From the sequence record EF437941: a DNA stretch of 64,000 nt; one strand, given 5' to 3'. A model generated the notes under the pieces. The model made no database searches. It saw nothing but the letters and a program-made list of their open reading frames with translations, and was not told where the DNA came from. The position numbers were made by a program, and so were the translations under genes. Positions within the stretch are counted from its first letter, which is position 1; each line of letters opens with the position of its first letter. This DNA is from Escherichia phage Phi1. Shown here one piece after another: positions 2,805 through 60,420 of this stretch.

Positions 2805-2833
2805 ATTATGCTATATCCCCGATCCAGTGTCAA
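2805..2833 (-). promoter_or_regulatory. early sigma70-like promoter with stem-loop around -10 (PeSL-type)
   Basis: minus strand TTGACA-N17-CATAAT; GGGGATATAGCATAATGTCCCC hairpin. Confidence 0.5.
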
Positions 2834-2840
2834 TAACTTT

Positions 2841-3140
2841 TTAATCTTTTTTCAGTGCATCCATTACTCGCGCTGCGATCAGTTCTCGTAAGCACTGATA
2901 ACCATGATATTTGATGGCAATATCACGCAGGTCATTAACCAGTTCCCGTACTTCATGGTCTTTCAAATCGTCTCTGTATTTCGATTTAACCGTGTCTTTA
3001 GGTGGATTGCGGATAACCTGAAAACCTTGTTCTGCAATCACTGCGGCTTCTCGCTGGCGTTCATGCTGTACTGTATTTTTGATCAGGTCTACTTCCATGA
3101 ACTTTGCCATACTCATCATCATGTTATTCTTTTTGCTCAT
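2841..3140 (-). CDS. hypothetical protein
   Basis: ORF 2841..3221 trimmed to internal ATG (MSKKNN) because a promoter cassette occupies 3175..3202. Confidence 0.5.
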   Translation of the reverse strand: MSKKNNMMMSMAKFMEVDLIKNTVQHERQREAAVIAEQGFQVIRNPPKDTVKSKYRDDLKDHEVRELVNDLRDIAIKYHGYQCLRELIAARVMDALKKD

Positions 3141-3174
3141 TATTAAATCCTCATAAAAGAAAAGGGAGACTCCC

Positions 3175-3202
3175 ATTATAGAGAATCTCCCTTGTATGTC
3201 AA
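3175..3202 (-). promoter_or_regulatory. early promoter (PeSL-type)
   Basis: TTGACA ... TATAAT with GGGAG..CTCCC inverted repeat flanking -10. Confidence 0.5.
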
Positions 3203-3205
3203 GTG

Positions 3206-5029
3206 TTATGATTGCATCCAAATTTTGCGTTGATCTGCATCTTCACTATAGAGCAAATCGAATAGCTCTTTATAGTTTTCCGGCAACGTGATGATCTCCA
3301 TTACAGGATCGTTGATCACGCGATGATAATCTGATTCTGTAAGAGATGCTAACCCTTTGATATATCGAATGCTATAACCTTTGATATTATCTCGGTCGTT
3401 CTCAAAATCTTCTAGGTCATAATACCATCGAACATCATCACCTTTCTTTGGTTCCGCAATGATAATAGGTGTTTTGATAAACCGGATTCGACCATCTTCG
3501 AACAATTCAGGCCAACGTGCAAAGAAAGAGATCAGACTAGGTTTAATAGACCCGATCCCGTCAGTATCAGCGTCAGTCATAATCGCAATATTTTTGTATT
3601 GCATAACTTCCAATGCATCAACACCAAATTGCAAGCCAGTGATCGCCATGATGTTAAAAATTTCGGCGTTCTTAACGATCTTTGCCTCCGGTTGTTCCCA
3701 CGTTGTAAGAGTTTTGCCTCGCAACGGGAAACCGCCATGTAAATCTTGATCACGTACAGAGATCAGATAGTTGATCGCGGAATCACCTTCCGTCAAAAAC
3801 AGGGTAGTTTCTGCGTCAGTTCCAATAAGGTTAGCTTTAACGTGCTTTGCTACCTTAGCCCGTTTTGCTGCCTTTGCTGCCTTAGTCGCTGCCGCTTTAT
3901 CTGCTGCCTCTTTGCGTGCCAGGACTACAGCAATAATAGGCATAATAATGTTTTCTTTCTTCGCAATGACTTTAGCCAGCTTTTTAAAATCCAGATCAAT
4001 ATGACGCTTGATATCACCAGTTGGATTAGTCAAGCGTTCTTTTGTCTGTGAATCAAAACGAAGGTTAGGCAATTCACGAACAATCAAAATACAGGTCAAT
4101 CCAGACTTAACCGCAGCTTTAGTAACATCAACCTTATATTCTTTCTTGATTCGTTTTACAATCTCTTCACAAAGATCATCTGTCACGTAGTCTACGTGTG
4201 TTCCCCCGTTTTTGGTAAACAGACCATTAGCAAAGGATACTGATTTAAAACCTTCTCCCTCGACCGCAGGAACTAGGGCAAGTGAAAAGTTTTTATCTTC
4301 AATGACAAACGGATCATCATTGTATAGTTTAGCATAATCCTTGAACTTACTAACAATACGTTTACCATTAAACTTAAACGTGATCTTAGGAAAGATTACG
4401 CTCAATGATTGCAGACGATCATGAACAATATCTAAAACAGAGTTGTCCATCATATAACCTTCGAAGTGGTCGAAGTCTGGGCAAAATGTAACCTTTGTTC
4501 CCTTCAATTTTGATGGTTTTGATGACCATGTGATATTTTCAGCACCGTTTGTGCACTGTACGGTCATTTCTGTTTCGCCGTCACAAGTTACACCAGTAAA
4601 CCAATCGCTAAAGAAATTTGACAACGACGACCCCACACCGTTCATACCTTGCGTTAATCGATTGGTATCATCAAAGTTAGACCCTGCTTTTGTTCGTGTC
4701 CATGCGGCTACAGGTTGAGGAATCTGTGTACCCTCTGGGGTAGTAACCATATGTTGAGGAATACCGCGACCATTGTCTGTTACCGTAACAATATTGTTTT
4801 GGATATCGACGCTAATCACATTGGCAAATTCAAAATTAGTGCGGATCGCCTCGTCTACAGAGTTATCGATGATCTCATCAATGATTTTAACCAGTCCAGG
4901 AACATATGAAATTTTTGTCCATTTACCGAACAGGAAACGTTGATGTTCTTCGTAAGTTGTTGATCCTATATACATTCCTGCACGCTTAAGGACATGTTCA
5001 CGATCAGATAAAATGCGAAACTCACTCAT
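3206..5029 (-). CDS. 39: DNA topoisomerase II large subunit (gp39, 39/60 fused form; GyrB-like ATPase + Toprim)
   Basis: 607 aa; GHKL ATPase motifs (NGRGIP, GxxGxG), Toprim EGDSA and DxD motifs; size matches unsplit gp39 of T2-type phages. Confidence 0.9.
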   Translation of the reverse strand: MSEFRILSDREHVLKRAGMYIGSTTYEEHQRFLFGKWTKISYVPGLVKIIDEIIDNSVDEAIRTNFEFANVISVDIQNNIVTVTDNGRGIPQHMVTTPEGTQIPQPVAAWTRTKAGSNFDDTNRLTQGMNGVGSSLSNFFSDWFTGVTCDGETEMTVQCTNGAENITWSSKPSKLKGTKVTFCPDFDHFEGYMMDNSVLDIVHDRLQSLSVIFPKITFKFNGKRIVSKFKDYAKLYNDDPFVIEDKNFSLALVPAVEGEGFKSVSFANGLFTKNGGTHVDYVTDDLCEEIVKRIKKEYKVDVTKAAVKSGLTCILIVRELPNLRFDSQTKERLTNPTGDIKRHIDLDFKKLAKVIAKKENIIMPIIAVVLARKEAADKAAATKAAKAAKRAKVAKHVKANLIGTDAETTLFLTEGDSAINYLISVRDQDLHGGFPLRGKTLTTWEQPEAKIVKNAEIFNIMAITGLQFGVDALEVMQYKNIAIMTDADTDGIGSIKPSLISFFARWPELFEDGRIRFIKTPIIIAEPKKGDDVRWYYDLEDFENDRDNIKGYSIRYIKGLASLTESDYHRVINDPVMEIITLPENYKELFDLLYSEDADQRKIWMQS

Positions 5030-5132
5030 TATTAAACCTCTTCATAACATAACCATAACTTACTGCAACCGCCACAAAGACGGCTGCAACAATCATATTA
5101 AAAATTGAGTGATTGTCAAGTATATGACTCAT
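5022..5132 (-). CDS. small hydrophobic protein (36 aa)
   Basis: short ORF MSHILDNHSIFNMIVAAVFVAVAVSYGYVMKRFNNE; ATGA overlaps both neighbours; not in ORF track (<60 aa). Confidence 0.3.
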   Translation of the reverse strand: MSHILDNHSIFNMIVAAVFVAVAVSYGYVMKRFNNE

Positions 5133-5302
5133 GACACACGCACATTTTTATCGTAATACCCGCCATTAATCCCGCGCGGGGCAGTTAATCCCTGTTTGCA
5201 TTCTTTACCACATTCAGGACATTCTGCCTTTTCACGCTCGGAAATTTTGCGGATTTTCTGAAATTGACCATGTTCTTCACAAGAATAATCATATAATGGC
5301 AT
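5129..5302 (-). CDS. FmdB-family zinc-ribbon protein
   Basis: MPLYDYSCEEHG...CPECG: N-terminal MP-x-Y-x-Y-x-C and paired CxxC typical of FmdB zinc ribbon; internal ATG chosen. Confidence 0.6.
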   Translation of the reverse strand: MPLYDYSCEEHGQFQKIRKISEREKAECPECGKECKQGLTAPRGINGGYYDKNVRVS

Positions 5303-5303
5303 A

Positions 5304-6216: not shown

Positions 6217-6446
6217 ATCAAAAACCTCGCTTAGTGAAATGTTCTGTCATTTTATTGATACATACATCTTGGTAGTCACGAGATTTTTTTGACGAATTAA
6301 GAGCTACAGCCAAAAAATCCTGTAACTGTTCGTTTGTCATTTTTGGCTTACAACGCGTATCTAAACTCTTCGTTCTTCTAGCTTCATTAGCCATATCAAA
6401 AACCTCGCTTAGTGAAATGCTCGATCATTTTATTGATACATGCAGC
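6213..6446. repeat. direct repeat pair (about 56 bp each, at 6213..6268 and 6391..6446)
   Basis: ccatatcaaaaacctcgcttagtgaaatg...cattttattgatacat repeated with few mismatches; covers 3' end of one small gene and start of next. Confidence 0.7.
6218..6394 (-). CDS. hypothetical small protein (paralog, C-terminal CINKMTEHFTKRGF)
   Basis: 58-aa ORF found by manual translation; shares C-terminal 14 aa with next gene. Confidence 0.45.
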   Translation of the reverse strand: MANEARRTKSLDTRCKPKMTNEQLQDFLAVALNSSKKSRDYQDVCINKMTEHFTKRGF

Positions 6447-6563
6447 TTCACTATCGCCGGACACGTTCCAGCCGTATAGACCCCATCTAAAGCACATGGT
6501 AACAGTTCCATTGTGACGGCTTACCGTCACATCATTAAATTCTGGGATACTTCGCATAATCAT
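6396..6563 (-). CDS. hypothetical small protein (paralog, C-terminal CINKMIEHFTKRGF)
   Basis: 55-aa ORF found by manual translation; GAGGA RBS. Confidence 0.45.
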   Translation of the reverse strand: MIMRSIPEFNDVTVSRHNGTVTMCFRWGLYGWNVSGDSEAACINKMIEHFTKRGF

Positions 6564-9034: not shown

Positions 9035-9063
9035 AATTGATTCTCCTTAGTTGGTATGTGTGT

Positions 9064-9092
9064 ATTATTGTCTATCTGGTTTGTGTTGTCAA
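9064..9092 (-). promoter_or_regulatory. early promoter
   Basis: TTGACA-N17-AATAAT followed by GGAGAATCAA RBS. Confidence 0.45.
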
Positions 9093-9095
9093 CAC

Positions 9096-9599: not shown

Positions 9600-9667
9600 A
9601 ATAAAAAGCCTCCAATCTTTCGACGGGAGGCATAATAAAACCATTATAGATTAGTGTCAACTAATTT

Positions 9668-10192
9668 TTAGTAGCCGCGTTCTTGACGGGCGAAGTTTTC
9701 AGCATTTTTCAGATAGTACAGAATAAAGAGTTCTTGAGCCTCAATACCCAGCGGGATCATCTTTGACAGAATGAAGTGGATAGCGTCCACAAATTCAAAT
9801 TTCACTTCAAGCTGATCTTCTGGTGACAGTTCAGAGAATTTACGCGCTCGCGCTTCCCCGTGGTTCTTTTTCCACATTTTCCAGATTGCGCTTGCATCTT
9901 TACCGTTGGACATTCCACCCAGCGATGTGTAAAGCTCTCGTGTTTCGTCTGCGATAGCGTCATCCATCCGTTGCATCCAATCCAGCATTTCACCGCAAGT
10001 CTCTAGCTTAGTTGGATTTGGGACCCAATCAAATTTTTCGGATAATGCAACCTGCAAACCAGTTTGCATTTCGAGCATCACCTGAAACGGATCTTTACCT
10101 TCTGCAATCGCGTGATGATATGCGGCGATAGCCGCGTTAATATCTTTTTCGTTAACCAGACCAGCACAAGAATTAAATTCTGACATATTCAC
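9668..10192 (-). CDS. 56: dCTP pyrophosphatase gp56 (MazG-like)
   Basis: 174 aa; C-terminal LYYLKNAENFARQERGY and central MazG-like helices match T4 gp56 as remembered. Confidence 0.8.
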   Translation of the reverse strand: MNMSEFNSCAGLVNEKDINAAIAAYHHAIAEGKDPFQVMLEMQTGLQVALSEKFDWVPNPTKLETCGEMLDWMQRMDDAIADETRELYTSLGGMSNGKDASAIWKMWKKNHGEARARKFSELSPEDQLEVKFEFVDAIHFILSKMIPLGIEAQELFILYYLKNAENFARQERGY

Positions 10193-10200
10193 CTCATTAA

Positions 10201-11229
10201 TTAAAATTTACAATATTTCATAAACCGCATTTTAGCCATCAGACCTTGTACGGTGTTCTCTTTGATGTATTCCATGATCTGGTCGCGTGTAGCGCCCTCG
10301 TCCTGAATCATGGCATTAACGTCTTTAGAATGCCACGGGCAACGATCCCACAAAACAATCTTTTCCCCTGCATTGATAAACTTTTCCAGTCGGTGCATTG
10401 TATCGGCTGACCGTGGTTCCGCATCAAGTACAAACACTCGTTGGTCTGGGAAAGGGATTTCATCTAATCCCAACGTACCGCCAGTAATTGCACACCCGTT
10501 ATCAATAAACAATGAATCGATCGGACCTTCTAAGAAATACACTGGTTTACTCGGATCGGCGCGTTCAAGACCATAGACCTTACTCGCTAACTCGTGAGTT
10601 TTAATCGTCATATATTTGGTCTTTCCGTAATCCTTTCTCAATGCTCGCCCCTGAATGGATTCTATCTTGTTCTCGCGGTTAAAGATAGGAATCACTAAAC
10701 GCGGTTCAGGTTGTGGATTCTTGAAAGTATCAGCCTTAATGTGATTTGCTACCTTTTGCCATTCTCTCGTGAAATACAGAAGATCCCATTTATCGTGGGG
10801 AATGCAACGATCACTGACATACTTTATTATAGGATGATTAGCCGGAAGAGTATCTAATCTCTCGCAGAAAGGCAATGTTTGCACTTTCTTAATCTCCGGC
10901 TTTTCTACCTTTTTCAGTGGCTTGAACGTGGTGTTCTTGTGGTCGCCTTGTTCCTTCCGTCGTTCCATAAGCCATTCCCTGAATAGGTCCGGCTTATATT
11001 GTTTGAGAAATTCACCTAACGGCTGATTGTAGTTACAGTTGAAACAGCCGCAACGCAAACTATCCTTATAGGTATAGATACGGAATCGCGCTTGAGTATG
11101 ATTTTTCTTTGAGTCACCGCAGATCGGACAACTACAGACCAGCGTAAATGAGCTAGTATGCAACCGTTTAAAATTTCGTTCGCCGTATATGGCTTTTTCC
11201 GCTATTTCATAATCTGCGTAGTAAATCAT
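10201..11229 (-). CDS. 61: DNA primase gp61
   Basis: 342 aa; N-terminal CPICGD zinc ribbon, Toprim-like core, C-terminal MAKMR..KY; same length as T4 gp61. Confidence 0.9.
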   Translation of the reverse strand: MIYYADYEIAEKAIYGERNFKRLHTSSFTLVCSCPICGDSKKNHTQARFRIYTYKDSLRCGCFNCNYNQPLGEFLKQYKPDLFREWLMERRKEQGDHKNTTFKPLKKVEKPEIKKVQTLPFCERLDTLPANHPIIKYVSDRCIPHDKWDLLYFTREWQKVANHIKADTFKNPQPEPRLVIPIFNRENKIESIQGRALRKDYGKTKYMTIKTHELASKVYGLERADPSKPVYFLEGPIDSLFIDNGCAITGGTLGLDEIPFPDQRVFVLDAEPRSADTMHRLEKFINAGEKIVLWDRCPWHSKDVNAMIQDEGATRDQIMEYIKENTVQGLMAKMRFMKYCKF

Positions 11230-11238
11230 AATAACCTC

Positions 11239-11442: not shown

Positions 11443-11582
11443 TTAAGCGCCACCGACAACAGAATGAGAACTACACCAACATACATTGTGATCTCGGATA
11501 ACTTTTCTGTTTTTGTTTTGTGTCCAGATAATCCGAAAACAACAACACCGATAATAGCGGACAGCAAGCCAACGATAAACAT
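11439..11582 (-). CDS. small membrane protein (47 aa)
   Basis: manual translation MFIVGLLSAIIGVVVFGLSG...; stop overlaps next ATG. Confidence 0.4.
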   Translation of the reverse strand: MFIVGLLSAIIGVVVFGLSGHKTKTEKLSEITMYVGVVLILLSVALK

Positions 11583-15720: not shown

Positions 15721-15948
15721 CTATTCAGTTAATCCGTAATACTTTAATTGCTTCATTGTTATTCGATCTTTGTAGTGCTCTTGAATTAACTTTTTCATCG
15801 CATCAACATCGATCGTCACAAATACTTCGTTGCTGTGATTTCCGTGAACTTTCTTGAAATGCTCTATGCCTTCCTCACGTTCGCGTTTAATCTTTTCAAT
15901 GTCTCTCATAATATATTTCTCACGTTGGCGGGTATCGTCACCCAACAC
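15721..15948 (-). CDS. hypothetical protein
   Basis: 75-aa ORF between DNA polymerase and uvsX, where T4 carries beta-gt and gene 42. Confidence 0.5.
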   Translation of the reverse strand: MLGDDTRQREKYIMRDIEKIKREREEGIEHFKKVHGNHSNEVFVTIDVDAMKKLIQEHYKDRITMKQLKYYGLTE

Positions 15949-15970
15949 CCGCCATTATACACACTTTATC

Positions 15971-18649
15971 TTAAATGTCAAACAGGTCCGTAAGCGATGC
16001 CACCTTTTCATATTGCAGCTTTGCAGCCGTGGTAATGTTCTCAAGCGGTTTGACGAAAGTCTTATTAAACAACAAAGGCCAGTCTAACCACTTCAACACT
16101 TCTGATTCAATTTCTGGAGGAATACGAGTACCAGACAACCAACCAAAACAGATTTCTCCAAACGGATTTCGATCTTTAAGCGGTACAATCATAACCTTCT
16201 CGCCTTCACGAATCGGATCTAGTCCGAATTTTCGAGCATTACGATTATAACACAATACACTCTTAACCGCATACGGACAACCCTTAATCGGATACCCGTT
16301 TGAATCGCTGTATTTCTGTAGGTTGTTTGCCGATGATACCGCAGCAACCTCAAGATAGTCAAGTTTTCTAAACTCTTGCTCAAAAATACCGTAGTATTCC
16401 TGCAATGACTCTTCACCTTCCTGCAACATACGGCGAATACATTCTTTCAGTGATTTCTGACATGCTTTAGGTGTAGAACTACGCTGTGTTTCCAAACCCA
16501 TGATTTTTAGCTTAGGTTCAGCAAAGCGCGTTCCTTCCATATCCCAAACATTAAGAGCATAGCGTTTTTTACCCGTCCAGAATCCACCGATACCCGCAGA
16601 TTTCAACGGAGGACCAGCAATTGCCTCACGGTCCATAAACATCAAGTGCTCGTAGTTGTTCATGTACTCGCATAACTCGCGATATCCCTTGTCGATAATA
16701 GGTTCCATTCGATGTTTACCGAAATTATCAAGGAAGTCAACAAGTTTTTCGGTATCGTCGAAACGGTCTTCCCCGCCAACCTTATCAATAACATTATTAA
16801 CCAGCACATAAACGGAGTCAGTATCACAATAACGAACATATGCAAAATCGGTTGTTCCGCAAAGCTCGTTTAAGTATTCGTTAATCTTACGCTCAATCCA
16901 CTGAATTGCAAGCTGACCGAACAGTGTGATCGCACTCGCGTTACGGAGATCATAAAAACGGAATTTAGGATTCCCCAACGCACCATAAAGGGAGTTGATC
17001 AAAACTTTACGAGAAAGCTGGTTTGTATTGCACAAGATCGACTCGTCTTTACATTCTTCCAGCAATTTCTCTAAGGCATCTTTACTTAATTCAGAAAGCA
17101 TCGATTTAAACGCTTCATCAAAGTCGTGACGCACTTCAACGCTATAGCTAATGGTTCCCCCATAAACATGATTTTCATCGTGTAGAATCGCTTTACAGAG
17201 TTCAGCATTGCGATCACATGCCAACATCATGTTTTTGTACTGCTTACGCTGATCGAATACCTTTTTAATCTCAATCGGTACGATACCATGAATATCTTTT
17301 CGATACATCCACCCGTTAGGCGAGCAAGAATACTCATCACTAGGACGCGGTGCAGTTTTATTGATATACGCGTGCATCGGTGCAGCATCAAAAGATCCCG
17401 CGATTGTTTCAGGCGAAATATTAACCTGTCGAATAATAGATGGATACAGACTTGTCAAGTCAAAGCTCATCATCCAACGGTAAGCATTCGGCACAGGTTC
17501 TTTTACGAATGCGCCAGGATAAGTCTGCTTCGGCTGTATCTTGTTCTCTGGTACTACTTTACCCTCAGCTTTCAGAGATCCGAAGATAATAGCATCCCAT
17601 ACTTTCATCGGGTTATAAACATGGTTAAATTTAATCTTTGCATAGAAACATAGGCTATACACCAGATCAATAAAACCACGCTTTTTATCAATCGCCAGCA
17701 CACGATCAACGTCGCCGATGTTATAATCGATGTAAAGTTGATGGTTGTCATCACGCAATTTCTTTAACGGACCATCATAATCAACCTTACCGATTCCGGT
17801 CTCATATTCAGCAACATAATCTAATGCATATGTTGGTTGAGTCGTAAAGCTAAATTTCTTGTACAGGTCAATATAATCAAGGCTTTCGATCCCCATGATC
17901 GTAAATGCTTCACGCTCGTTGCCAAAATCATCCTGTGAGATTCGGGATTTAATCTTACCGCACGGGCTTAGACGGTTAGCGGTTCTACTTCCGAACTTAT
18001 TACTGATACGTTTAATGATATATGGAATATCGAATGTTTCTGTGTTCCAGCCAGTGAAACCAACGGGTCGGTTTTCCTCAAAGAATCGGATGTATTCTAA
18101 TAGCAATTCATCTTCTGTGTCATAGACGTTATAAACAACGCGCTCTACAATATCAGGTCGAAGAATAGACTTGCTTGCTTCCCAGATTTCACCGCTTTTT
18201 CCTTTCAAATCAAATACAAAGAAACGATCATGCACGGAATCATAATGCGTAATTGCATCGATAGGATATTTCGCTTCTTCTGGTTTAGGAAATTCCGGTG
18301 CAGTGACCTCGATATCAACCCATGCTACACGGATTTTATTTCGGTCATATCGAATCTCGCCTTTATACGTATCGGACAGATATGAGATGATAAAATCATC
18401 CATCCCTAGTGCCTCTTGCCCCATTTCTCCCATCTTTTTACGCCATTTGTTGGCCTCGTTCATAGATGGGAATTTTTTAGCAATGCAAGGCTTGCCATAG
18501 ATATCTTTATAATTCGTAACCATACCAGGCGCGGCATGATGAAATAAAGTTGGCGTGTATTCAACGTAACGCTCTTGTTCTTGTCCAACATCATCAATAT
18601 AACGCTCGTAGATCTTATCACCCACTCGCTCACATGACAGAAAATACAT
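15971..18649 (-). CDS. 43: DNA polymerase gp43 (family B)
   Basis: exo motifs, DxxSLYPS and YGDTDS polymerase motifs; start set at internal ATG with AAGGAG RBS (MYFLSCERVG). Confidence 0.95.
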   Translation of the reverse strand: MYFLSCERVGDKIYERYIDDVGQEQERYVEYTPTLFHHAAPGMVTNYKDIYGKPCIAKKFPSMNEANKWRKKMGEMGQEALGMDDFIISYLSDTYKGEIRYDRNKIRVAWVDIEVTAPEFPKPEEAKYPIDAITHYDSVHDRFFVFDLKGKSGEIWEASKSILRPDIVERVVYNVYDTEDELLLEYIRFFEENRPVGFTGWNTETFDIPYIIKRISNKFGSRTANRLSPCGKIKSRISQDDFGNEREAFTIMGIESLDYIDLYKKFSFTTQPTYALDYVAEYETGIGKVDYDGPLKKLRDDNHQLYIDYNIGDVDRVLAIDKKRGFIDLVYSLCFYAKIKFNHVYNPMKVWDAIIFGSLKAEGKVVPENKIQPKQTYPGAFVKEPVPNAYRWMMSFDLTSLYPSIIRQVNISPETIAGSFDAAPMHAYINKTAPRPSDEYSCSPNGWMYRKDIHGIVPIEIKKVFDQRKQYKNMMLACDRNAELCKAILHDENHVYGGTISYSVEVRHDFDEAFKSMLSELSKDALEKLLEECKDESILCNTNQLSRKVLINSLYGALGNPKFRFYDLRNASAITLFGQLAIQWIERKINEYLNELCGTTDFAYVRYCDTDSVYVLVNNVIDKVGGEDRFDDTEKLVDFLDNFGKHRMEPIIDKGYRELCEYMNNYEHLMFMDREAIAGPPLKSAGIGGFWTGKKRYALNVWDMEGTRFAEPKLKIMGLETQRSSTPKACQKSLKECIRRMLQEGEESLQEYYGIFEQEFRKLDYLEVAAVSSANNLQKYSDSNGYPIKGCPYAVKSVLCYNRNARKFGLDPIREGEKVMIVPLKDRNPFGEICFGWLSGTRIPPEIESEVLKWLDWPLLFNKTFVKPLENITTAAKLQYEKVASLTDLFDI

Positions 18650-18681
18650 AATATAAACTCCTTCACTTACGAAAGACACTC

Positions 18682-18710
18682 ATTATAGGGGAATCGACTT
18701 AGTTTGTCAA
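18682..18710 (-). promoter_or_regulatory. promoter upstream of gene 43
   Basis: TTGACA-N17-TATAAT on minus strand, about 30 nt before the polymerase ATG. Confidence 0.5.
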
Positions 18711-18731
18711 TACCCCTATCCCATCAGTATC

Positions 18732-20648: not shown

Positions 20649-20713
20649 ATAATCACCTCTCACAAATTACATCATTAAAACGGGGAGTATTTACACTCCC
20701 CACAAACATTATA

Positions 20714-21403
20714 TTAGTCGGTGTAGCTGGAGTCAAGGTCACACGCGATCATATAAGATACGGTTTCACTTGCCAGCCATACAGCCTTACGGCGAGTGAA
20801 GCTCAGTTTGTAATCGCCGAAGTCAGTAGCAACCAGTTTCATGTTATCTTTACGAATAAAGAAATGGAAGTCTGCGGTTCCGGTATATTCGCCCATATCA
20901 AGACAAAACATCTCATTAGGATTATTTTTGTCAATCTCTTCCCAGCCTTTGATCATAAGACGACCATCAATCGGCAGAAATTCAAGGCGATCCACTTTAA
21001 GCTGATTGCTCATTTTCATAAGCTGTTTCAGATCGTCGTTGCTCAGTTCGTAATCTACATCGCTTGCAGGTGGAGTAACTCGGCCTTTCGGTGACACGAT
21101 AGCGGCAGCACTAGCACCAGGATAATTAATTTTCAGACGATCATTAGACACACGAATGTTTCCGGTGCGGTCATCAACCGTAATATCTGCTTCATCGCCT
21201 ACCAGATTCAGAATACCCAGGAAAGAGTTAAGATCATAGATCCCAATTTCGTGTTCCAGTTCTTGATTCAGAGTCGCTTCACCATATACAACGTTTGTCA
21301 TGTTTTTGGTGATCAGGACGTTTCCTTTTTTCAGGATGATACCTGGGTTAATAGCGGAAAAGTTTTTCAGGGTAGCAATGGTTTCTTTAGTCAGTTTCAT
21401 CAA
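20714..21403 (-). CDS. 45: sliding clamp gp45
   Basis: 229 aa; position and size. Confidence 0.85.
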   Translation of the reverse strand: MMKLTKETIATLKNFSAINPGIILKKGNVLITKNMTNVVYGEATLNQELEHEIGIYDLNSFLGILNLVGDEADITVDDRTGNIRVSNDRLKINYPGASAAAIVSPKGRVTPPASDVDYELSNDDLKQLMKMSNQLKVDRLEFLPIDGRLMIKGWEEIDKNNPNEMFCLDMGEYTGTADFHFFIRKDNMKLVATDFGDYKLSFTRRKAVWLASETVSYMIACDLDSSYTD

Positions 21404-25225: not shown

Positions 25226-25485
25226 CGTACAGACCCCATAGATCCACGCGCAATAACATTCTGGGTAATATCAGCAACCTTACGGGATACGATGTTTGTT
25301 AGCCCCTCTTTGGTGATATTTTCACGATCAAATGGGATTTCGTCATGAGTCCACAAACCATAGTTAGATCGAAATGATAGCATATACTGACCATCTCGCA
25401 CAACTTCAAATACATGGATCTTAGTGAATTTCGATAAACCTTCGTTGATTTCTTTCAGTGCATTAGCAATCATAACAACCTCCAA
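25222..25485 (-). CDS. hypothetical protein
   Basis: 87-aa ORF. Confidence 0.45.
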   Translation of the reverse strand: MEVVMIANALKEINEGLSKFTKIHVFEVVRDGQYMLSFRSNYGLWTHDEIPFDRENITKEGLTNIVSRKVADITQNVIARGSMGSVR

Positions 25486-25527
25486 TCAATTTTTAGAGAG
25501 TATAACGGGGATTTCTCCCCGCGTCAA

Positions 25528-32883: not shown

Positions 32884-32924
32884 ATTTGATTCTCCTGTAA
32901 AGTTGTATCTCGTCTTGATGAATA

Positions 32925-32955
32925 TAGTATAGGGGATCTCGCGATCCCAGTCAAG
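32925..32955 (-). promoter_or_regulatory. early promoter (PeSL-type)
   Basis: TTGACT GGGATCGCGAGATCCCC TATACT: the 17-nt spacer is a perfect hairpin. Confidence 0.5.
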
Positions 32956-32958
32956 CGT

Positions 32959-34046: not shown

Positions 34047-34075
34047 GTTGTCCTCTCGTTGTTTTCGATGTGAGC

Positions 34076-34103
34076 ATTATACATTAGCTAATCACGTTGT
34101 CAA
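34076..34103 (-). promoter_or_regulatory. early promoter
   Basis: TTGACA-N16/17-TATAAT. Confidence 0.5.
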
Positions 34104-34113
34104 CACCCCAAAA

Positions 34114-34140
34114 CGAAAAAGCCGACCCTTTCGGATCGGC
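34114..34140 (-). terminator. rho-independent terminator after nrdD
   Basis: AGCCGATCCGAAAGGGTCGGCTTTTTCG; same hairpin family as terminators at 47362 and 53276. Confidence 0.6.
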
Positions 34141-34146
34141 TAAAAA

Positions 34147-36549: not shown

Positions 36550-36579
36550 AATATAATCCTCTCGTTGTTAAGTGGGAGT

Positions 36580-36607
36580 ATTATAGCATACTCCCTTTGC
36601 ATGTCAA
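36580..36607 (-). promoter_or_regulatory. early promoter (PeSL-type)
   Basis: TTGACA ... TATAAT inside GGGAGTATGCTATAATACTCCC hairpin. Confidence 0.5.
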
Positions 36608-37782: not shown

Positions 37783-37813
37783 AATATAATCCTCTCGTTG
37801 TTTAAATGGGAGT

Positions 37814-37842
37814 ATCTTACTACTCCCGTTTCATCATGTCAA
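37814..37842 (-). promoter_or_regulatory. early promoter (PeSL-type)
   Basis: TTGACA-N17-TAAGAT with GGGAGTAGTAAGATACTCCC hairpin; -35 overlaps upstream stop codon. Confidence 0.5.
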
Positions 37843-38692: not shown

Positions 38693-38723
38693 TGTTGATT
38701 CTCCTTCTTGATTAGATGGGAGC

Positions 38724-38752
38724 ATTTTACTACTCCCATTTCTTATTGTCAA
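38724..38752 (-). promoter_or_regulatory. early promoter (PeSL-type)
   Basis: TTGACA-N17-TAAAAT with GGGAG..CTCCC hairpin. Confidence 0.5.
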
Positions 38753-38755
38753 CTA

Positions 38756-41914: not shown

Positions 41915-41984
41915 AATATAATCCTCACATCGTTCATTTGATGCGGTTATTATAGATTAACCGCATTTTCATGTCAAACAGTTT

Positions 41985-42581: not shown

Positions 42582-42623
42582 TTTGATTCTCCTTAAGAAA
42601 GTATGTTTCGTTTTGATGTGTGT

Positions 42624-42652
42624 AGTATAGGGGATACGTGATCCCCTGTCAA
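42624..42652 (-). promoter_or_regulatory. early promoter (PeSL-type)
   Basis: TTGACA GGGGATCACGTATCCCC TATACT: spacer is a perfect palindrome. Confidence 0.5.
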
Positions 42653-42659
42653 CAACTTT

Positions 42660-42989
42660 TTATGATTTTAGTGAATTAACTACTACATCAAAATGATGTA
42701 CAGAGTACACCTTACGAAACACGTATTCATCATGTTTAGGAATCGCCCCTAACCGCTCTATTTCGCTCGCTGACACGATAAACCGCTTATCTGGTGCATT
42801 TACCTTATATGCTTCAACAACGCACGGAAAACGCGTTTTAGCGAGTTCTGGATAGTTTTCCGAATCCATCAGGACAATGAATACCCTATTACATTGATTG
42901 TAGAATCCTGTTTTTGATTTCATCAAGTTTTCTTCTCTGTGAAATTCGTGCAATCTTCCTTTCATGATTTCGTTGGTTCCTGTCTTCAT
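42660..42989 (-). CDS. hypothetical protein
   Basis: ORF; start uncertain (overlaps upstream ORF). Confidence 0.45.
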   Translation of the reverse strand: MKTGTNEIMKGRLHEFHREENLMKSKTGFYNQCNRVFIVLMDSENYPELAKTRFPCVVEAYKVNAPDKRFIVSASEIERLGAIPKHDEYVFRKVYSVHHFDVVVNSLKS

Positions 42990-44886: not shown

Positions 44887-44915
44887 CTTTGATTCTCCTT
44901 AGTTGGTATGCGTGC

Positions 44916-44943
44916 ATTATAGCATTGTGATTATCTTTGTCAA
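44916..44943 (-). promoter_or_regulatory. early promoter
   Basis: TTGACA-N16-TATAAT. Confidence 0.5.
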
Positions 44944-44947
44944 CACC

Positions 44948-44981
44948 CAAAAAACAAAAAAGGCTATCCCGAAGGATAGCC
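44948..44981 (-). terminator. rho-independent terminator
   Basis: GGCTATCCTTCGGGATAGCC hairpin followed by T-run on minus strand. Confidence 0.6.
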
Positions 44982-44988
44982 CATAAAA

Positions 44989-46041: not shown

Positions 46042-46080
46042 TTTTGATTCTCCTAGAAAGTGTCGTGTTTCGATGGGTGT

Positions 46081-46110
46081 ATTATGCAATAACACCGGAA
46101 CGATGTCAAC
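46081..46110 (-). promoter_or_regulatory. early promoter
   Basis: TTGACA-N17-CATAAT. Confidence 0.5.
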
Positions 46111-46127
46111 ACTTTCTAAGAAAAATT

Positions 46128-47293: not shown

Positions 47294-47322
47294 TTTGATT
47301 CTCCTTTGTTGTCGATGTGTGC

Positions 47323-47351
47323 ATTATGCTATACCATGATCCGGTTGTCAA
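47323..47351 (-). promoter_or_regulatory. early promoter
   Basis: TTGACA-N17-CATAAT. Confidence 0.5.
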
Positions 47352-47361
47352 CACCTAAAAA

Positions 47362-47387
47362 CGAAAAAGCCACCCTTTCGGATGGCT
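47362..47387 (-). terminator. rho-independent terminator
   Basis: AGCCATCCGAAAGGGTGGCT hairpin followed by T-run. Confidence 0.55.
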
Positions 47388-47402
47388 TTTGATTATATTT
47401 TA

Positions 47403-51168: not shown

Positions 51169-51204
51169 TAATTTCTCCTGTTTGGCTTAACTTTCTGATT
51201 CCAT

Positions 51205-51231
51205 AATATAGCCCTATCACCAGAAAGTCAA
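51205..51231 (-). promoter_or_regulatory. promoter (TTGACT-N15-TATATT; possible MotA-box-like TGCTTGA)
   Basis: minus strand AATGCTTGACT...TATATT upstream of SLT gene. Confidence 0.35.
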
Positions 51232-51254
51232 GCATTATTTTTAACCAATTTCCA

Positions 51255-51681: not shown

Positions 51682-52017
51682 TTATCCTTTCTTAAACAAA
51701 TTGCGAATCCAGTATACAAACGGGATTTCTTTAAACTTGAATTTCTCTATAGTTAATTCTTTAGTAGCAAGATGAATACCATAAGCATCATGTGTCACGA
51801 TATGCCATTTTCTATAGTCCAAATGTGAACAACCGTCTGGATCTAGGTTAATAAGAGTTTCTCGCTCACTAGGATTATTTTTCCACAATTTTGTAATAGG
51901 ATCGCACATAATTCGACCTAGCGTACCATGAATAATCTCACAACGGTAAAGTTTTCCAGCAGTGAGATAGGCGCACCCGTCATAGTCGGTATAAACAAAC
52001 ACTTCTTTAACACTCAT
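51682..52017 (-). CDS. paralog family C protein
   Basis: DGCAYL ... DPDGCSHLDYRKW; internal ATG after AAGGAG. Confidence 0.5.
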   Translation of the reverse strand: MSVKEVFVYTDYDGCAYLTAGKLYRCEIIHGTLGRIMCDPITKLWKNNPSERETLINLDPDGCSHLDYRKWHIVTHDAYGIHLATKELTIEKFKFKEIPFVYWIRNLFKKG

Positions 52018-52045
52018 TTTAATACTCCTTTGTTTCGATGGGGGT

Positions 52046-52074
52046 ATATTACTACCCCCGTTTTGTTGTGTCAA
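52046..52074 (-). promoter_or_regulatory. early promoter (PeSL-type)
   Basis: TTGACA-N17-TAATAT within GGGGGTAGTAATATACCCCC hairpin. Confidence 0.5.
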
Positions 52075-53231: not shown

Positions 53232-53275
53232 AATTAAACCCTCAGTTGATTAAGAGATTGCATCATATCATCATA

Positions 53276-53308
53276 AAACGAAAAAGCCAACCCTTTTCGG
53301 ATTGGCTT
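53276..53308 (-). terminator. rho-independent terminator
   Basis: GCCAATCCGAAAAGGGTTGGC hairpin followed by T-run, downstream of grcA-like gene. Confidence 0.55.
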
Positions 53309-54417: not shown

Positions 54418-54807
54418 TTATTTTTGGTCTGGGTATTTGCTGTGTGGTAATTGTAGATGAGGACCATCTTTAAACGATACCCAATCCCCACCCCATTCAA
54501 CAGGAACACCCAATTCTCGACCAGCTTGTTTAAATGCATCAGCGATCATGCGGTAATATTTCATATTCCATGTATCTTTATCTTTCGGATACGCTACAAC
54601 GTCAACCGCGAAACCGTGAAGATGACGAGATTTCATAGTCTTAGATTTACCTTCCGCAACATATTTCTTTTGCGTTGCGAGACTACGCACACCTTCCGTA
54701 ATACCAAAATCGACCGGAGTCAGTTCTAACGCACGATGAACGACTTTTACCAGGTCTGGATGTACACCAACAAGCCGATCTTTGCTTCTTTGAGATAATT
54801 TAAACAT
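54418..54807 (-). CDS. endolysin, L-alanyl-D-glutamate peptidase (peptidase M15/VanY-like)
   Basis: 129 aa; SRHLHGFAVDV zinc-binding motif (SxHxxGxAxD) and C-terminal His; occupies the position of lysozyme e. Confidence 0.8.
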   Translation of the reverse strand: MFKLSQRSKDRLVGVHPDLVKVVHRALELTPVDFGITEGVRSLATQKKYVAEGKSKTMKSRHLHGFAVDVVAYPKDKDTWNMKYYRMIADAFKQAGRELGVPVEWGGDWVSFKDGPHLQLPHSKYPDQK

Positions 54808-56446: not shown

Positions 56447-56647
56447 CTAAAATTTGTTAACGACGAATTGCATAATTAGACTAATCACAAACATTGCAAA
56501 CCAAGTATAAATGCAACAGATAAAAGCTACATACAATTCAATCTGGTCAGAGAATACACCGGGTAAAAGCATTAGCAAAATAACAACAGTAAAGACGCTA
56601 GCGATACCCGCAACAAAACCAATATCATTTTTACTAATCGTCATCAA
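56447..56647 (-). CDS. small membrane protein
   Basis: 66 aa hydrophobic. Confidence 0.45.
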   Translation of the reverse strand: MMTISKNDIGFVAGIASVFTVVILLMLLPGVFSDQIELYVAFICCIYTWFAMFVISLIMQFVVNKF

Positions 56648-56853
56648 GTCACCGTTTTGTAAAGAAACACAATAAAATCCAAGACAAGAAAGACAGTGTA
56701 AATGATCATCGTCAAGACAGTAAACACTGTCAAATTTTCATCGTTAGTTAATTCATAGTCGCCCATCCATACAATCACAAGATATAGCATTGAAAGAATG
56801 GAAGCACCTACGAAGTTAAAAAACATATTCTTGAGCGTCATATTAACAACCAT
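56644..56853 (-). CDS. small membrane protein
   Basis: 69 aa hydrophobic. Confidence 0.45.
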   Translation of the reverse strand: MVVNMTLKNMFFNFVGASILSMLYLVIVWMGDYELTNDENLTVFTVLTMIIYTVFLVLDFIVFLYKTVT

Positions 56854-57360: not shown

Positions 57361-57402
57361 TTTGATACTCCTTAGTAGTTCGTGTTTCGTTTCGATGGGT
57401 GT

Positions 57403-57431
57403 ATTATGCTATACACCCTCTTGTGTGTCAA
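57403..57431 (-). promoter_or_regulatory. early promoter
   Basis: TTGACA-N17-CATAAT. Confidence 0.5.
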
Positions 57432-57439
57432 CAACTTTT

Positions 57440-58064: not shown

Positions 58065-58093
58065 TTTGATTCTCCCGTTTCGTTGATGGTTGT

Positions 58094-58122
58094 ATTGTAG
58101 GGGAGTTATCCTCCCCTGTCAA
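58094..58122 (-). promoter_or_regulatory. early promoter (PeSL-type)
   Basis: TTGACA GGGGAGGATAACTCCCC TACAAT: spacer is a hairpin. Confidence 0.5.
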
Positions 58123-58130
58123 CACTTTTA

Positions 58131-58316: not shown

Positions 58317-58362
58317 AATTTGATTCTCCGTTTAAGAAAGTGTGTTTCGTTTCGATGGGTGT

Positions 58363-58391
58363 ATTATGCTATAGGCCGGATCTGGTGTCAA
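58363..58391 (-). promoter_or_regulatory. early promoter
   Basis: TTGACA-N17-CATAAT. Confidence 0.5.
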
Positions 58392-58415
58392 CAACTTTTT
58401 TAAAAAAATTTTAGG

Positions 58416-58444
58416 CAATAAAAAAGCCACTCCGAAGAGTGGCT
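58416..58444 (-). terminator. rho-independent terminator
   Basis: AGCCACTCTTCGGAGTGGCT hairpin (UUCG loop) followed by T6. Confidence 0.6.
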
Positions 58445-58448
58445 TATA

Positions 58449-59707: not shown

Positions 59708-59716
59708 ATTATCACC

Positions 59717-59875
59717 TTATTTGCTAATCGCTAAACCTAATCCGAAGAGAGCACCCGACGCTACAGTATACCCGAAAGTTTCAAAGGCAGTAAAGATATC
59801 TAAGCCACCAGCTAACAGAGTTGCAGTAAACAGAGTACCAGCTACGAACATAAAAGTTTTACCGATAAATTTCAT
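59717..59875 (-). CDS. small membrane protein (52 aa)
   Basis: manual translation MKFIGKTFMFVAGTLFTATLLAGGLDIF... Confidence 0.4.
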   Translation of the reverse strand: MKFIGKTFMFVAGTLFTATLLAGGLDIFTAFETFGYTVASGALFGLGLAISK

Positions 59876-59906
59876 TTTGATTCTCCTTTCGTTTGTTTGT
59901 GGGGGT

Positions 59907-59935
59907 ATCTTACTACCCCCGTTTCATGTTGTCAA
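59907..59935 (-). promoter_or_regulatory. early promoter (PeSL-type)
   Basis: TTGACA-N17-TAAGAT inside GGGGGTAGTAAGATACCCCC hairpin. Confidence 0.5.
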
Positions 59936-59941
59936 CTATTT

Positions 59942-60316
59942 TTAAGAATATTTTACTTCGTCTACAATGTCTTTCATGACATTGATTTCCATTCCGGTCA
60001 GAACACGTTGGAACATGTGCTGAACATACGCTTTCAGGTATTCATTTGATGGCTTGCTATCGAAAGTCTTTTTAGTGTAGTAGTCATCACCGAAAGCTAC
60101 TGTAATTACATTTTCGTCGTCGTTCCAAGCGATATAAGCAAATTTGCCGTTATCCCAGAAGCGAGCACTAATTGCTACTTTTGTTGAATCGAATCCTACT
60201 TCGCTGTGAGATTCAAGAACTACTTGCGTGCCAGTTTCTTTATGAATGTAGTAGCGGGATACTAAGTCAAAGTTACGGGTGTAGTGACATTCGAACTTAT
60301 CTTTAAACATCATCAT
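59942..60316 (-). CDS. hypothetical protein
   Basis: ORF with GGAGAATCAAAA RBS. Confidence 0.5.
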   Translation of the reverse strand: MMMFKDKFECHYTRNFDLVSRYYIHKETGTQVVLESHSEVGFDSTKVAISARFWDNGKFAYIAWNDDENVITVAFGDDYYTKKTFDSKPSNEYLKAYVQHMFQRVLTGMEINVMKDIVDEVKYS

Positions 60317-60354
60317 TTTTGATTCTCCCAAGTGTTTTTCGTTTCTATGTGTGC

Positions 60355-60383
60355 ATTATGCTATAGTCGTTTATGGTTGTCAA
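60355..60383 (-). promoter_or_regulatory. early promoter
   Basis: TTGACA-N17-CATAAT. Confidence 0.5.
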
Positions 60384-60391
60384 CACATAAA

Positions 60392-60420
60392 AACAAAAAA
60401 ACCCCGAAAAATTTTCGGGG
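60392..60420 (-). terminator. rho-independent terminator
   Basis: CCCCGAAAATTTTTCGGGG hairpin followed by T-run. Confidence 0.6.

Follow-up and report, generated by a model that had tools for sequence, protein, structure and literature searches.

The repeated terminator–promoter–RBS modules of coliphage Phi1 are very probably the published PeSL (promoter-early stem-loop) cassettes. They are not new, since the window, i.e., the whole 64-kb stretch analysed here, is the first 64 kb of the same genome, and the elements are those of the original PeSL description. The window encodes an exact copy of the Phi1-unique protein phi1p084.1, matches 8 of 8 proteins labelled 'identical to phi1', and is 96–98% identical to RB49-type Krischvirus genomes. 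PeSLs were defined in Phi1 and RB49 by Arbiol et al. 2010, with the use of reporter assays and mini-circle PCR, as an AT-rich region, sigma70 -35 and -10 boxes, a stem-loop (often polyG...polyC) at one of five positions (upstream of -35, over -35, between the boxes, over -10, or downstream of -10), and a Shine–Dalgarno (SD) sequence with ATG; an upstream stop codon marks their 5′ boundary, and the Shine–Dalgarno sequence and start codon their 3′ boundary (PMC2839356). Phi1 has 52 of them, preferentially in hyperplastic regions and upstream of ORFans, with the exceptions of nrdD and of g43, which has PeSLs on both flanks (PMC2839356). Their promoter and terminator activity and their mini-circles have been demonstrated: in lacZ fusions, the promoter strength was ~13,000 Miller units and termination was on par with rrnB T1, and the mini-circles were detected by inverse PCR; the assayed cassettes, PeSL206/205 (promoter) and PeSL211/210 (the sole one assayed for terminator activity), both lie outside the 64-kb window (PMC2839356). 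Comeau et al. 2014 extended PeSLs to T4/PST and KVP40/nt-1 (PMC4122927). What our analysis adds to the PeSL paper is the exclusivity of one hairpin per cassette, the place of this hairpin relative to the predicted +1, the covariation of the stems from copy to copy with mismatches leaning to sense-strand G:U, the resemblance of the RBS box to RegB sites, and the finding that, in 15 genomes, only a minority of the indels are associated with cassettes.

The original prediction of at least 20 intergenic minus-strand sites between 2805 and 60420 was correct in its span, and we counted 26 such sites. Each of them consists of an AT-rich tract, TTGACA, a spacer of 16–17 nt (17 nt had been predicted), a TATAAT-like -10, and an RBS with ATG. 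The set (n = 26) comprises the intergenic matches of a wider promoter scan (spacer of 16–18 nt, at most 2 mismatches; 72 matches on the minus strand vs. 7 on the plus strand) that have a stop codon upstream and SD and ATG downstream. While the promoter architecture is shared as predicted, the RBS box is not universal: GGAGAATCAAA is present exactly at 10 starts and at 13 with one mismatch, and the remaining cassettes have GAGGATTATATT-ATG or other RBSs. The match to PeSLs, previously proposed, holds for the architecture, for all five positional subclasses, for the preference for hyperplastic regions and ORFans (17/26 cassettes within the hyperplastic 32–61 kb stretch, p = 0.048), and for the loci named in the literature, namely the g43 flanks (c18710 and c15981) and nrdD (c34103); we saw no structural difference. 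The cassettes and one terminator-only region are as follows:

c60383, 60317..60425, minus: upstream of ORF125; terminator hairpin 60401-60421 with T-run, -35 60383-60378, -10 CATAAT 60360-60355, GGAGAATCAAA 60328-60318, then ATG
c59935, 59876..59941, minus: upstream of ORF124; -10 TAAGAT in GGGGGTA/TACCCCC loop, GGAGAATCAAA 59886-59876
c58391, 58317..58445, minus: upstream of ORF117; terminator 58424-58445, -35 at 58391, -10 CATAAT with degenerate stem, GGAGAATCAAA 58329-58319
c58122, 58065..58130, minus: upstream of ORF116; spacer palindrome GGGGAGGATAACTCCCC, GGAGAATCAAA 58075-58065
c57431, 57361..57439, minus: upstream of ORF113; -10 CATAAT in GGGTGTAT/ATACACCC loop, box GGAGTATCAAA
53232..53317, minus: terminator-only intergenic region; hairpin 53284-53308 with T-run (third copy of the shared terminator), degenerate promoter
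c52074, 52018..52074, minus: upstream of ORF095 and regB; -10 TAATAT in GGGGGTA/TACCCCC loop, box GGAGTATTAAA
c51231, 51169..51254, minus: upstream of vs.1; long interrupted hairpin from -35 to ~+15, -19.6 kcal/mol
c47351, 47294..47399, minus: upstream of ORF084; shared terminator 47365-47390, -35 at 47351, -10 CATAAT, GGAGAATCAAA 47304-47294
c46109, 46042..46127, minus: upstream of ORF080; weak stem, GGAGAATCAAA 46053-46043; left partner in the phiS deletion
c44943, 44887..44988, minus: between gp38 (upstream) and ORF078 (downstream); terminator 44961-44982, perfect TTGACA-N16-TATAAT, GGAGAATCAAA 44898-44888; right partner in the phiS deletion, other variant in G2248, MIZ4 and G5211
c42652, 42582..42665, minus: upstream of ORF070; spacer palindrome GGGGATCACGTATCCCC, GGAGAATCAAA 42592-42582
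c41977, 41915..41984, minus: upstream of ORF068; -10 TATAAT in GCGGTTA/TAACCGC loop, RBS GAGGATTATATT
c38752, 38693..38755, minus: upstream of ORF060; -10 TAAAAT in TGGGAGTA/TGCTCCCA loop, box GGAGAATCAAC
c37842, 37783..37842, minus: upstream of frd.2; -10 TAAGAT in GGGAGTA/TACTCCC loop, RBS GAGGATTATATT
c36607, 36550..36607, minus: upstream of ORF057; perfect TTGACA-N16-TATAAT, -10 in GGGAGTAT/ATACTCCC loop
c34103, 34047..34146, minus: between nrdD (upstream) and ORF055 (downstream); shared terminator AGCCGATCCGAAAGGGTCGGCT with T-run, then perfect TTGACA-N16-TATAAT
c32954, 32884..32958, minus: upstream of ORF053; spacer palindrome GGGATCGCGAGATCCC, GGAGAATCAAA 32895-32885
c25527, 25474..25527, minus: upstream of ORF038; spacer palindrome CGGGGAGAAATCCCCG
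c20736, 20649..20736, minus: upstream of gene 44; hairpin GGGGAGT..ACTCCCC with T-run, from ~-2
c18710, 18650..18731, minus: upstream of gene 43; hairpin TAGGGG...CCCCTA around -35 and spacer
c15981, 15910..15981, minus: downstream of gene 43; perfect promoter, hairpin GGCGGGT..ACCCGCC, -7 to +21
c9660, 9600..9667, minus: upstream of modB; hairpin GCCTCC..GGAGGC with 7 T, -6 to +17
c9092, 9035..9095, minus: upstream of srd; promoter with GGAGAATCAAT, the sole copy without a detectable hairpin
c5119, 5030..5119, minus: upstream of gene 39; hairpin -7 to +25
c3202, 3141..3205, minus: upstream of ORF005; perfect promoter; 14-bp hairpin with the -10 in its loop, then T-run
c2833, 2775..2840, minus: upstream of ORF004; -10 CATAAT in GGGGATAT/ATGTCCCC loop

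The stem-loops are not due to chance: measured against dinucleotide shuffles, the 26 intergenic promoter regions had a mean folding z-score of -2.03, while that of 45 in-gene promoter look-alikes was 0.06 (Mann–Whitney p = 2e-6). One hairpin was present in 25 of the 26 cassettes, and an upstream T-tailed terminator and an embedded hairpin were mutually exclusive (0/5 vs. 20/21, Fisher p = 9e-5). As predicted, the -10 box was found inside a hairpin loop, in 9 copies and in a weak tenth at 46109, but the 'many' perfect GC-rich spacer palindromes had been overstated: there are four (58122, 42652, 32954, 25527), although the one quoted, at 42624-42652, was exact. The terminators at 34114, 47362, and 53276 do share a nearly identical hairpin; they have in common AGCC(n)ATCCGAAA(A)GGGT(n)GGCTTTTTCGTTTT and show a compensatory pair (G-C, A-T, or deleted). 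Stem covariation among paralogous copies was 0.225 vs. 0.135 in shuffled ones (0/500). Moreover, the stem mismatches were biased towards sense-strand G:T (17, vs. 5 A:C; p = 0.017), a bias that was not significant in promoter-embedded stems alone (9 vs. 3).

All the hairpins start upstream of the predicted +1, which we placed at the 7th nt after the -10 box with the indirect support of a conserved CCC|A and of a secondary citation of 5′ mapping, and would therefore be complete only in read-through RNA. The nine -10-in-loop hairpins reach to between -1 and +3, except for one that reaches +8. The RB49 early-promoter consensus, in which C is favoured at -3 to -1, fits the mapped 5′ ends (PMC1524935). 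A hairpin with a U-run, which is the canonical criterion for an intrinsic terminator, was found in the five upstream terminators, at 53284-53308, and in c9660, c3202, and c20736. The remaining spacer and -10-in-loop hairpins have 0–4 T in the next 8 nt (0–1 for the -10-in-loop type). Thus, most embedded hairpins have no U-run and are not canonical intrinsic terminators. The c9660 hairpin would be a terminator for read-through RNA only.

One could imagine, though we consider it unlikely, that the embedded stem-loops act at the level of DNA or the promoter and not on RNA, whether as a GC-rich discriminator tuning promoter strength or timing, by supercoil-dependent extrusion, or as a site for early-promoter shut-off. 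Such an action would fit the location of the 3′ arm CCCCC between the -10 box and +1 (the discriminator region is occupied in 9 cassettes), the toxicity of cloned PeSL promoters unless mutated (PMC2839356), and the fact that the mechanism of T4 early-promoter shut-down is not fully understood (PMC3014915). However, hairpins at differing positions (upstream terminator, spacer, -10, downstream) replace each other one-for-one, an argument for a role that does not depend on the geometry of the promoter. In addition, the hairpin behaved like a terminator in the published assay (PMC2839356), and the excess of G:T over A:C favours a structure in the single-stranded sense strand.

Judging from the sequence, the hairpins would rather act on read-through RNA, and each cassette would be a self-contained early expression unit between genes. 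The AT-rich, UP-like tract and the near-consensus sigma70 promoter would drive transcription by host RNA polymerase right after infection. The single stem-loop, which precedes the start site or spans it and is whole only in RNA coming from upstream, would terminate or attenuate this RNA, or cap its 3′ end, and would be followed by a strong RBS. Small gene blocks would thereby be transcriptionally insulated by the cassettes. Because there are ~50 dispersed, near-identical copies of 60–100 bp, all oriented alike, the efficient homologous recombination of the phage may occasionally cross over between them, deleting, inserting, or swapping the intervening ORFs and leaving a functional chimeric cassette.

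The identity between cassette pairs is up to 87% over 61 nt. All cassettes are kept at the same positions in the 15 related genomes compared, among which there are 8 ORFan-level indels. Exactly 44886-46040 is missing from phiS, and c46109 is fused there to ORF078 at GGAGAATCAA..ATG, which represents a clean cassette-to-cassette deletion. In G2248, MIZ4, and G5211, a different cassette variant at c44943 is accompanied by the loss of gp38, indicating cassette replacement. The gene shuffling that had been anticipated at the cassette boundaries is real, but it is not demonstrably preferential, because cassettes were involved in only 2 of the 8 ORFan-level indels, which is about the fraction (~0.34) expected for single-gene indels at random gene boundaries. 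Most indels involve non-cassette repeats or are homing endonucleases.

It is very doubtful that PeSLs are dedicated recombination elements, with a specific protein that binds or cleaves DNA at the GGGG...CCCC stem-loop and so actively drives an integron-like excision and insertion of ORFs. Such a protein could be a recombinase, for instance, or endonuclease VII if a cruciform is extruded, along the lines of a speculation by Arbiol et al. The phage does encode endonuclease VII (~38756-39244), both the phiS deletion and the G2248-type swap are located at cassettes, and the crossovers of mini-circles occurred inside PeSLs, one of them in a hairpin loop (PMC2839356). However, no integrase or recombinase gene has been reported, as the PeSL authors themselves state (PMC2839356), and the junction in phiS falls within the shared RBS box, outside any hairpin. 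The sequence and position of the hairpin differ among copies, with none at the promoter in 5 cassettes, and the stem mismatches lean to sense-strand G:T, a kind of pairing that would not be tolerated in a cruciform formed by both strands. Moreover, the same kind of deletion occurred through non-cassette repeats (event E2, through the 5′ ends of tandem paralogs), and indels were not enriched at cassettes in the 15 genomes. We regard cassette recombination as a probably passive by-product of sequence similarity, and not as a dedicated mobility mechanism.

A reading without any repeated module, in which AT-richness or a usual density of promoters merely mimics recurrence, is refuted: a loose scanner does yield many weak promoter-like sites (87 vs. 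58.6 expected), but TTGACA-N17-TATAAT with at most one mismatch had 25 matches, all on the minus strand, vs. 0.96 ± 0.89 in shuffles (an excess over AT-rich chance that had been predicted), the 11-mer GGAGAATCAAA with at most one mismatch had 13, also all on the minus strand, vs. 1.8 expected, the structure z-scores were unlike those of the in-gene controls, and the repeat families D1-D4, D10, and D13 were recovered blind. The AT fraction in the upstream 18 nt was 0.74 for the cassettes, as compared with 0.62 for the in-gene look-alikes (p = 3e-4) and 0.60 genome-wide.

As in T4, the early promoters of the RB49 type are recognised by host sigma70, their -35 and -10 boxes are strong, positions -40 to -44 form an A-rich, UP-like tract, and the early genes that they serve are on the counter-clockwise strand (PMC1524935). 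They differ from those of T4 by TTGACA (G at -33) in place of GTTTAC, and by T or C at -12. A further difference from the early promoters of T4, and from its intercistronic terminators, is that the promoter has the stem-loop built into it. Lambdoid phage morons are small accessory genes with their own promoter and terminator, and integron gene cassettes are small accessory genes between repeated recombination sites (attC). The small accessory genes linked to PeSLs are similar in having their own promoter and terminator or flanking repeats. However, morons are without a conserved flanking repeat, and integrons need an integrase and a structured attC, whereas PeSLs have no dedicated enzyme or fixed recombination site.

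Exact copies of the 11-nt box GGAGAAUCAAA are found at 10 starts, 9 of which are downstream of cassette promoters, and 10 of the 11 positions of the box fit the RegB/S1 consensus GGAGRAYARAA. In T4, this consensus describes 11-nt single-stranded targets at early-gene translation starts, which RegB cleaves between G and A of GGAG (Durand et al. 2006, PMC1702504). Like the T4 sites, GGAGAAUCAAA, a candidate RegB site, begins with GGAG, acts as an early-gene SD, and has an A-rich tail behind it. Unlike them, it has C at position 8, where A is strongly preferred in T4, and a T4 site that has C both there and at position 10 is cleaved poorly. The PeSL paper does not link boxes of this type to RegB (PMC2839356). 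The phage has a regB gene (RB49 coordinates 51556-51978), and RB49 RegB, which is divergent, is nevertheless active on its own GGAU SD, with GGAG/U sites being cut in vivo.

Promoter-like sequences matching TTGACA-N17-TATAAT with no more than one mismatch occur 25 times in the window, without exception on the minus strand, while 0.96 ± 0.89 would be expected from dinucleotide-preserving shuffles. Similarly, 13 sites, all of them minus-strand, match the 11-mer GGAGAATCAAA with one mismatch or none, where 1.8 would be expected. A looser promoter scan (spacer of 16–18 nt, up to two mismatches) returned 72 matches on the minus strand versus 7 on the plus strand. When the promoter matches were overlaid on the minus-strand ORFs and the gaps between them, 26 minus-strand matches had a stop codon upstream and a Shine–Dalgarno (SD) sequence with ATG downstream. 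These are the cassettes, each designated by c and the window position of its -35; 45 in-gene look-alikes served as a natural control set. The cassettes also emerged from a blind repeat search, as repeat families D1–D4, D10 and D13, and an independent consensus scanner placed 12/12 of its best matches on the minus strand, 10 of them at cassettes, and found T-tailed terminators as well. No Rfam family reached the gathering threshold anywhere in the window. The original prediction had put a recurrent minus-strand module at 20 or more intergenic sites, and the 26 counted here, with motif frequencies far above those of the shuffles, bear it out. A perfect TTGACA-N17-TATAAT is also present inside coding sequence at 232-260 (rIIA) and 2190-2218 (the next ORF), on the minus strand, with neither a stem-loop nor a nearby ribosome-binding site (RBS); these two may be internal early promoters or chance matches.

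The cassettes are an element already published, in the very genome in which it was described, so that the finding itself contains nothing new. Arbiol et al. (2010, PMC2839356) sequenced Phi1, set it against RB49, and defined promoter-early stem-loops (PeSLs) as the combination of an AT-rich tract, a promoter matching the E. coli sigma70 consensus, a stem-loop that is often polyG...polyC, and an SD sequence with ATG. The stem-loop took one of five positions (before the -35, across it, between the two boxes, across the -10, or past it), and 52 PeSLs were counted in Phi1 and 51 in RB49, mainly upstream of ORFans in hyperplastic regions, g43 (both flanks) and nrdD being exceptions (PMC2839356). 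The lacZ fusion of one PeSL yielded about 13,000 Miller units, one PeSL stem-loop terminated transcription as well as rrnB T1, and mini-circles with junctions inside PeSLs were detected by inverse PCR (PMC2839356). The proposed identity with PeSLs is correct: the window holds all five positional classes, both g43 flanks (c18710 and c15981), and the nrdD-associated copy (c34103), and the GEC-3S record has promoters and terminators annotated at homologous sites. The window is 96–98% identical to RB49-type Krischvirus phages and begins at the stop codon of rIIA, as RB49-type records do by convention. Of the proteins labelled 'identical to phi1' in the G5211 record, 8/8 are exact in the window and 1/8 in RB49. 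In addition, the 42 aa encoded at 47403-47528 match phi1p084.1 (YP_001469428.1) exactly; this protein is unique to Phi1 and is among the Phi1-unique ORFans of Arbiol et al. (PMC2839356). The window thus corresponds to positions 1–64000 of Phi1.

To assess the stem-loop, a segment reaching from 12 nt before the -35 to 22 nt past the -10 was folded. The mean z-score against shuffles was -2.03 at the 26 intergenic sites (58% under -2) and 0.06 at the 45 in-gene look-alikes (Mann–Whitney p = 2e-6). Clearly, the stem-loop exceeds chance, and these z-scores, together with the motif excess, rule out the cassettes as an artefact of AT-rich sequence. Twelve copies with the -10 in the loop were aligned, and two stem registers were prominent. 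The first was 71.9% paired versus 65.3 ± 1.9% in shuffles (0/500), with a covariation of 0.225 versus 0.135 (0/500), and the second was 69.0% paired; a shift of the partners by one column left only 31–44% paired. Between copies, the two arms changed in concert (GGGGG/CCCCC, GGGAG/CTCCC, GGGTG/CACCC, GCGG/CCGC). The covariation had to come from such paralogous copies, as no compensatory double changes in stems were found among the orthologues of 15 genomes, which are too similar to one another. In the same genomes, the non-Watson–Crick stem states were G:T in 17 and A:C in 5 cases (p = 0.017), consistent with a single-stranded structure of the sense strand; for the promoter-embedded stems alone, the difference (9 versus 3) was not significant. 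When read on the plus strand, the -10-in-loop hairpins at 52037-52062, 59899-59922 and 57397-57418 are followed by a T-rich tail, which comes from the A-rich promoter spacer upstream of the stem; for this reason, they score with the scanner as intrinsic terminators of possible antisense transcription.

The hairpins as originally described were largely recovered. The palindrome quoted at 42624-42652 is exact, the -10 lies inside a hairpin loop in nine copies plus a weak tenth, and the terminators at 34114, 47362 and 53276 are nearly identical, differing by one compensatory G-C, A-T or deleted pair. The exception is the palindromic spacer, said to occur in many copies, whose perfect GC-rich form is present in four only (58122, 42652, 32954 and 25527). 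When hairpins were enumerated over a span reaching from 60 nt before the -35 to 45 nt past the -10, one strong hairpin per cassette emerged, except for c9092, in which none was found within this range. Five cassettes have a canonical terminator, the T-run of which ends 49–66 nt upstream of the predicted transcript start (+1, the 7th nt past the -10), and lack a promoter hairpin, whereas 20 have a hairpin within or abutting the promoter and lack the upstream terminator. The two are mutually exclusive (Fisher p = 9e-5), and in alignment A1 the three copies with an upstream terminator have specifically lost the GC pairs of the stem around the -10. Moreover, all hairpins start upstream of the predicted +1. 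Those with the -10 in the loop end at -1 to +3, directly before the conserved CCC|A start, and the 'downstream' ones begin at -7 to -2, so that part of their 5' arm is missing from the cassette's own transcript. In c9660, with a 9-bp stem and 7 T, 6 bp would be absent from it. A U-run is absent from most embedded hairpins, which may act by termination, by pausing or just by protection of 3' ends. Most simply, hairpins at differing positions would be interchangeable in function and would act on incoming upstream RNA, not on the cassette's own transcript. This exclusivity and the geometry at +1 go beyond Arbiol et al. 2010 (PMC2839356).

The exact 11-mer GGAGAATCAAA, an RBS box, is present at 10 gene starts, 9 of which lie 45–62 nt downstream of a cassette -35, and the remaining cassettes have GAGGATTATATT-ATG or other RBSs. 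In T4, RegB with ribosomal protein S1 recognizes an 11-nt single-stranded RNA, GGAGRAYARAA, the T4 form of which is GGAGAAUAAAA, and cuts inside the SD sequences of early genes, inactivating them (Durand et al. 2006, PMC1702504). The cassette box GGAGAAUCAAA equals this target in length and is identical to it at 10 positions; however, it has C at position 8, and in T4 a site carrying C at both 8 and 10 serves poorly as a substrate (PMC1702504). A regB gene is encoded in the region of the window, and RB49 RegB is active in vivo and, being divergent, may have another site preference. RegB is not mentioned in either PeSL paper (PMC2839356; PMC4122927). On this sequence likeness, GGAGAAUCAAA as a RegB site is plausible but unproven. 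The second invariant RBS type, present in exact form at seven gene starts (those of uvsX and rIIA among them), is A/U-rich over the start codon, and hence RegA-operator-like in sequence.

Gene starts with exact GAGGATTATATT-ATG
56435, minus strand
41924, minus strand
38415, minus strand
37792, minus strand
36559, minus strand
14593, minus strand
2119, minus strand

Gene shuffling through the cassettes had also been proposed. We aligned 36.7-62.4 kb of the window with 14 other Krischvirus genomes (MAFFT) and called indels from the alignment, since blastn HSP chaining, which conceals gaps within HSPs, was too coarse. All 14 cassettes of this stretch are kept in position, and their variation is in loops and non-stem spacer bases. 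Cassettes were involved in 2/8 ORFan-level events. In phiS, exactly 44886-46040 is missing, and c46109 is joined at GGAGAATCAA..ATG to the ORF normally under c44943, which is a textbook cassette-to-cassette crossover that removed gp38 and ORF080. In G2248, MIZ4 and G5211, 44949-45821 (gp38 and its terminator) is missing, and another cassette variant occupies the gap, with the palindrome CGGGGAGAAATCCCCG identical to that of c25527. The other six events are elsewhere.

ORFan-level events away from cassettes
43487-43701, deletion between near-identical 5' ends of two tandem paralogs (repeat D8)
44134-44383, internal deletion
44383, insertion
47.4-47.7 kb, internal-deletion remnant of a 2.1-kb gene
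55653, insertion
56645-56841, deletion

With 14 cassettes among roughly 75 gene boundaries, indels of single genes placed at random would meet a cassette in about 1 of 3 cases, and 2/8 therefore indicates no enrichment at cassettes in this small sample. Cassette pairs are up to 87% identical across 61 nt, which is ample for a T4-type recombination system. We conclude that recombination at PeSLs is real, and that the best view of it is homologous recombination of the ordinary kind, acting on dispersed repeats.

Tentatively, and with rather less than even confidence, we propose that the PeSL is a three-function RNA-level expression unit, and not a promoter–terminator pair. Its hairpin would be placed to form solely in read-through RNA, where it would stop the RNA or cap its 3' end; the promoter would begin transcription anew; and the invariant 11-nt GGAGAAUCAAA would be an RB49-type RegB/S1 cleavage site, by which early messages could be shut off on schedule. 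The conservation that enables recombination would then arise from selection by RNA polymerase, ribosome/S1 and RegB, and mobility would be a passive by-product. If the hairpin and RBS-box assignments are true, PeSLs would account for the brief and independent expression of each of dozens of tiny early ORFans. These secondary results (the exclusivity of the hairpins and their geometry at +1, a possible RegB site, and a soberer estimate of cassette-mediated turnover) could refine the PeSL model, and the cassettes themselves serve as a positive control, in which a genuine regulatory and recombination module with experimental support was recognized from sequence.

Judging by the 15-genome comparison, cassette shuffling is only one way in which genes turn over in these regions, along with tandem-paralog recombination, internal deletions and homing endonucleases. 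The tandem paralogous small ORFs at 43411-43487 and 43626-43702 are 79% identical across their first 77 nt, and one copy is absent in 7/15 genomes, with the junction within the shared ATGAArATTGAAATTATTGA; this is a route of ORFan loss or gain without cassettes. Three insertion polymorphisms of homing endonucleases (39549, 53246-53260 and 54433-54460) lie within the aligned stretch.

HNH, AP2 or homing-endonuclease insertions, all sites empty in the window
26554, RB49 ORF040
39549, GEC-3S, Sf20, phiS
53246-53260, JSE, JK32, MIZ4, phiS
54433-54460, JSE, JK32, G2248, G5211, phiS

The 2.1-kb insertion at 47.4-47.7 kb was rejected as cassette-associated, as the window keeps both ends of the gene (blastn; 47403-47528 and 47593-47700): phi1p084.1 is its 3' remnant, and about 90 nt of its 5' end are retained as well. 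RB49-like genomes have a bigger deletion of this gene with another endpoint.

Intact copies of the ~2.1 kb gene
14636-16774, JK32 (locus L010)
9814-11958, G2248 (locus L011)
15134-17281, SFHK24 (locus L012)

The gp38 adhesin gene (44989-45765) is absent at its locus in G2248, MIZ4, G5211 and phiS (L011, L013, L014, L016). G2248 lacks gp38 there but has the 2.1-kb gene in intact form at 47.4 kb, a hint of alternative host-recognition modules. At 6218-6394 and 6396-6563, a 178-bp tandem duplicate of the adjoining ORF (repeat D12, 91% over 58 nt) forms a 55-aa ORF that is extra relative to RB49 and Whisky and is probably phi1 ORFan009.1; its protein is also present in JSE and many further contigs. 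A conserved 5' segment (repeat family D5) at 30400-32250 is common to four consecutive ORFs (RB49 ORF048-051), which therefore form a tandem paralog array. Finally, a 15-bp interrupted hairpin, GCCCCAGATT...AATCTGGGGG, surrounds the late-promoter-like TATAAATA at 48395-48440 on the minus strand, immediately upstream of rI.
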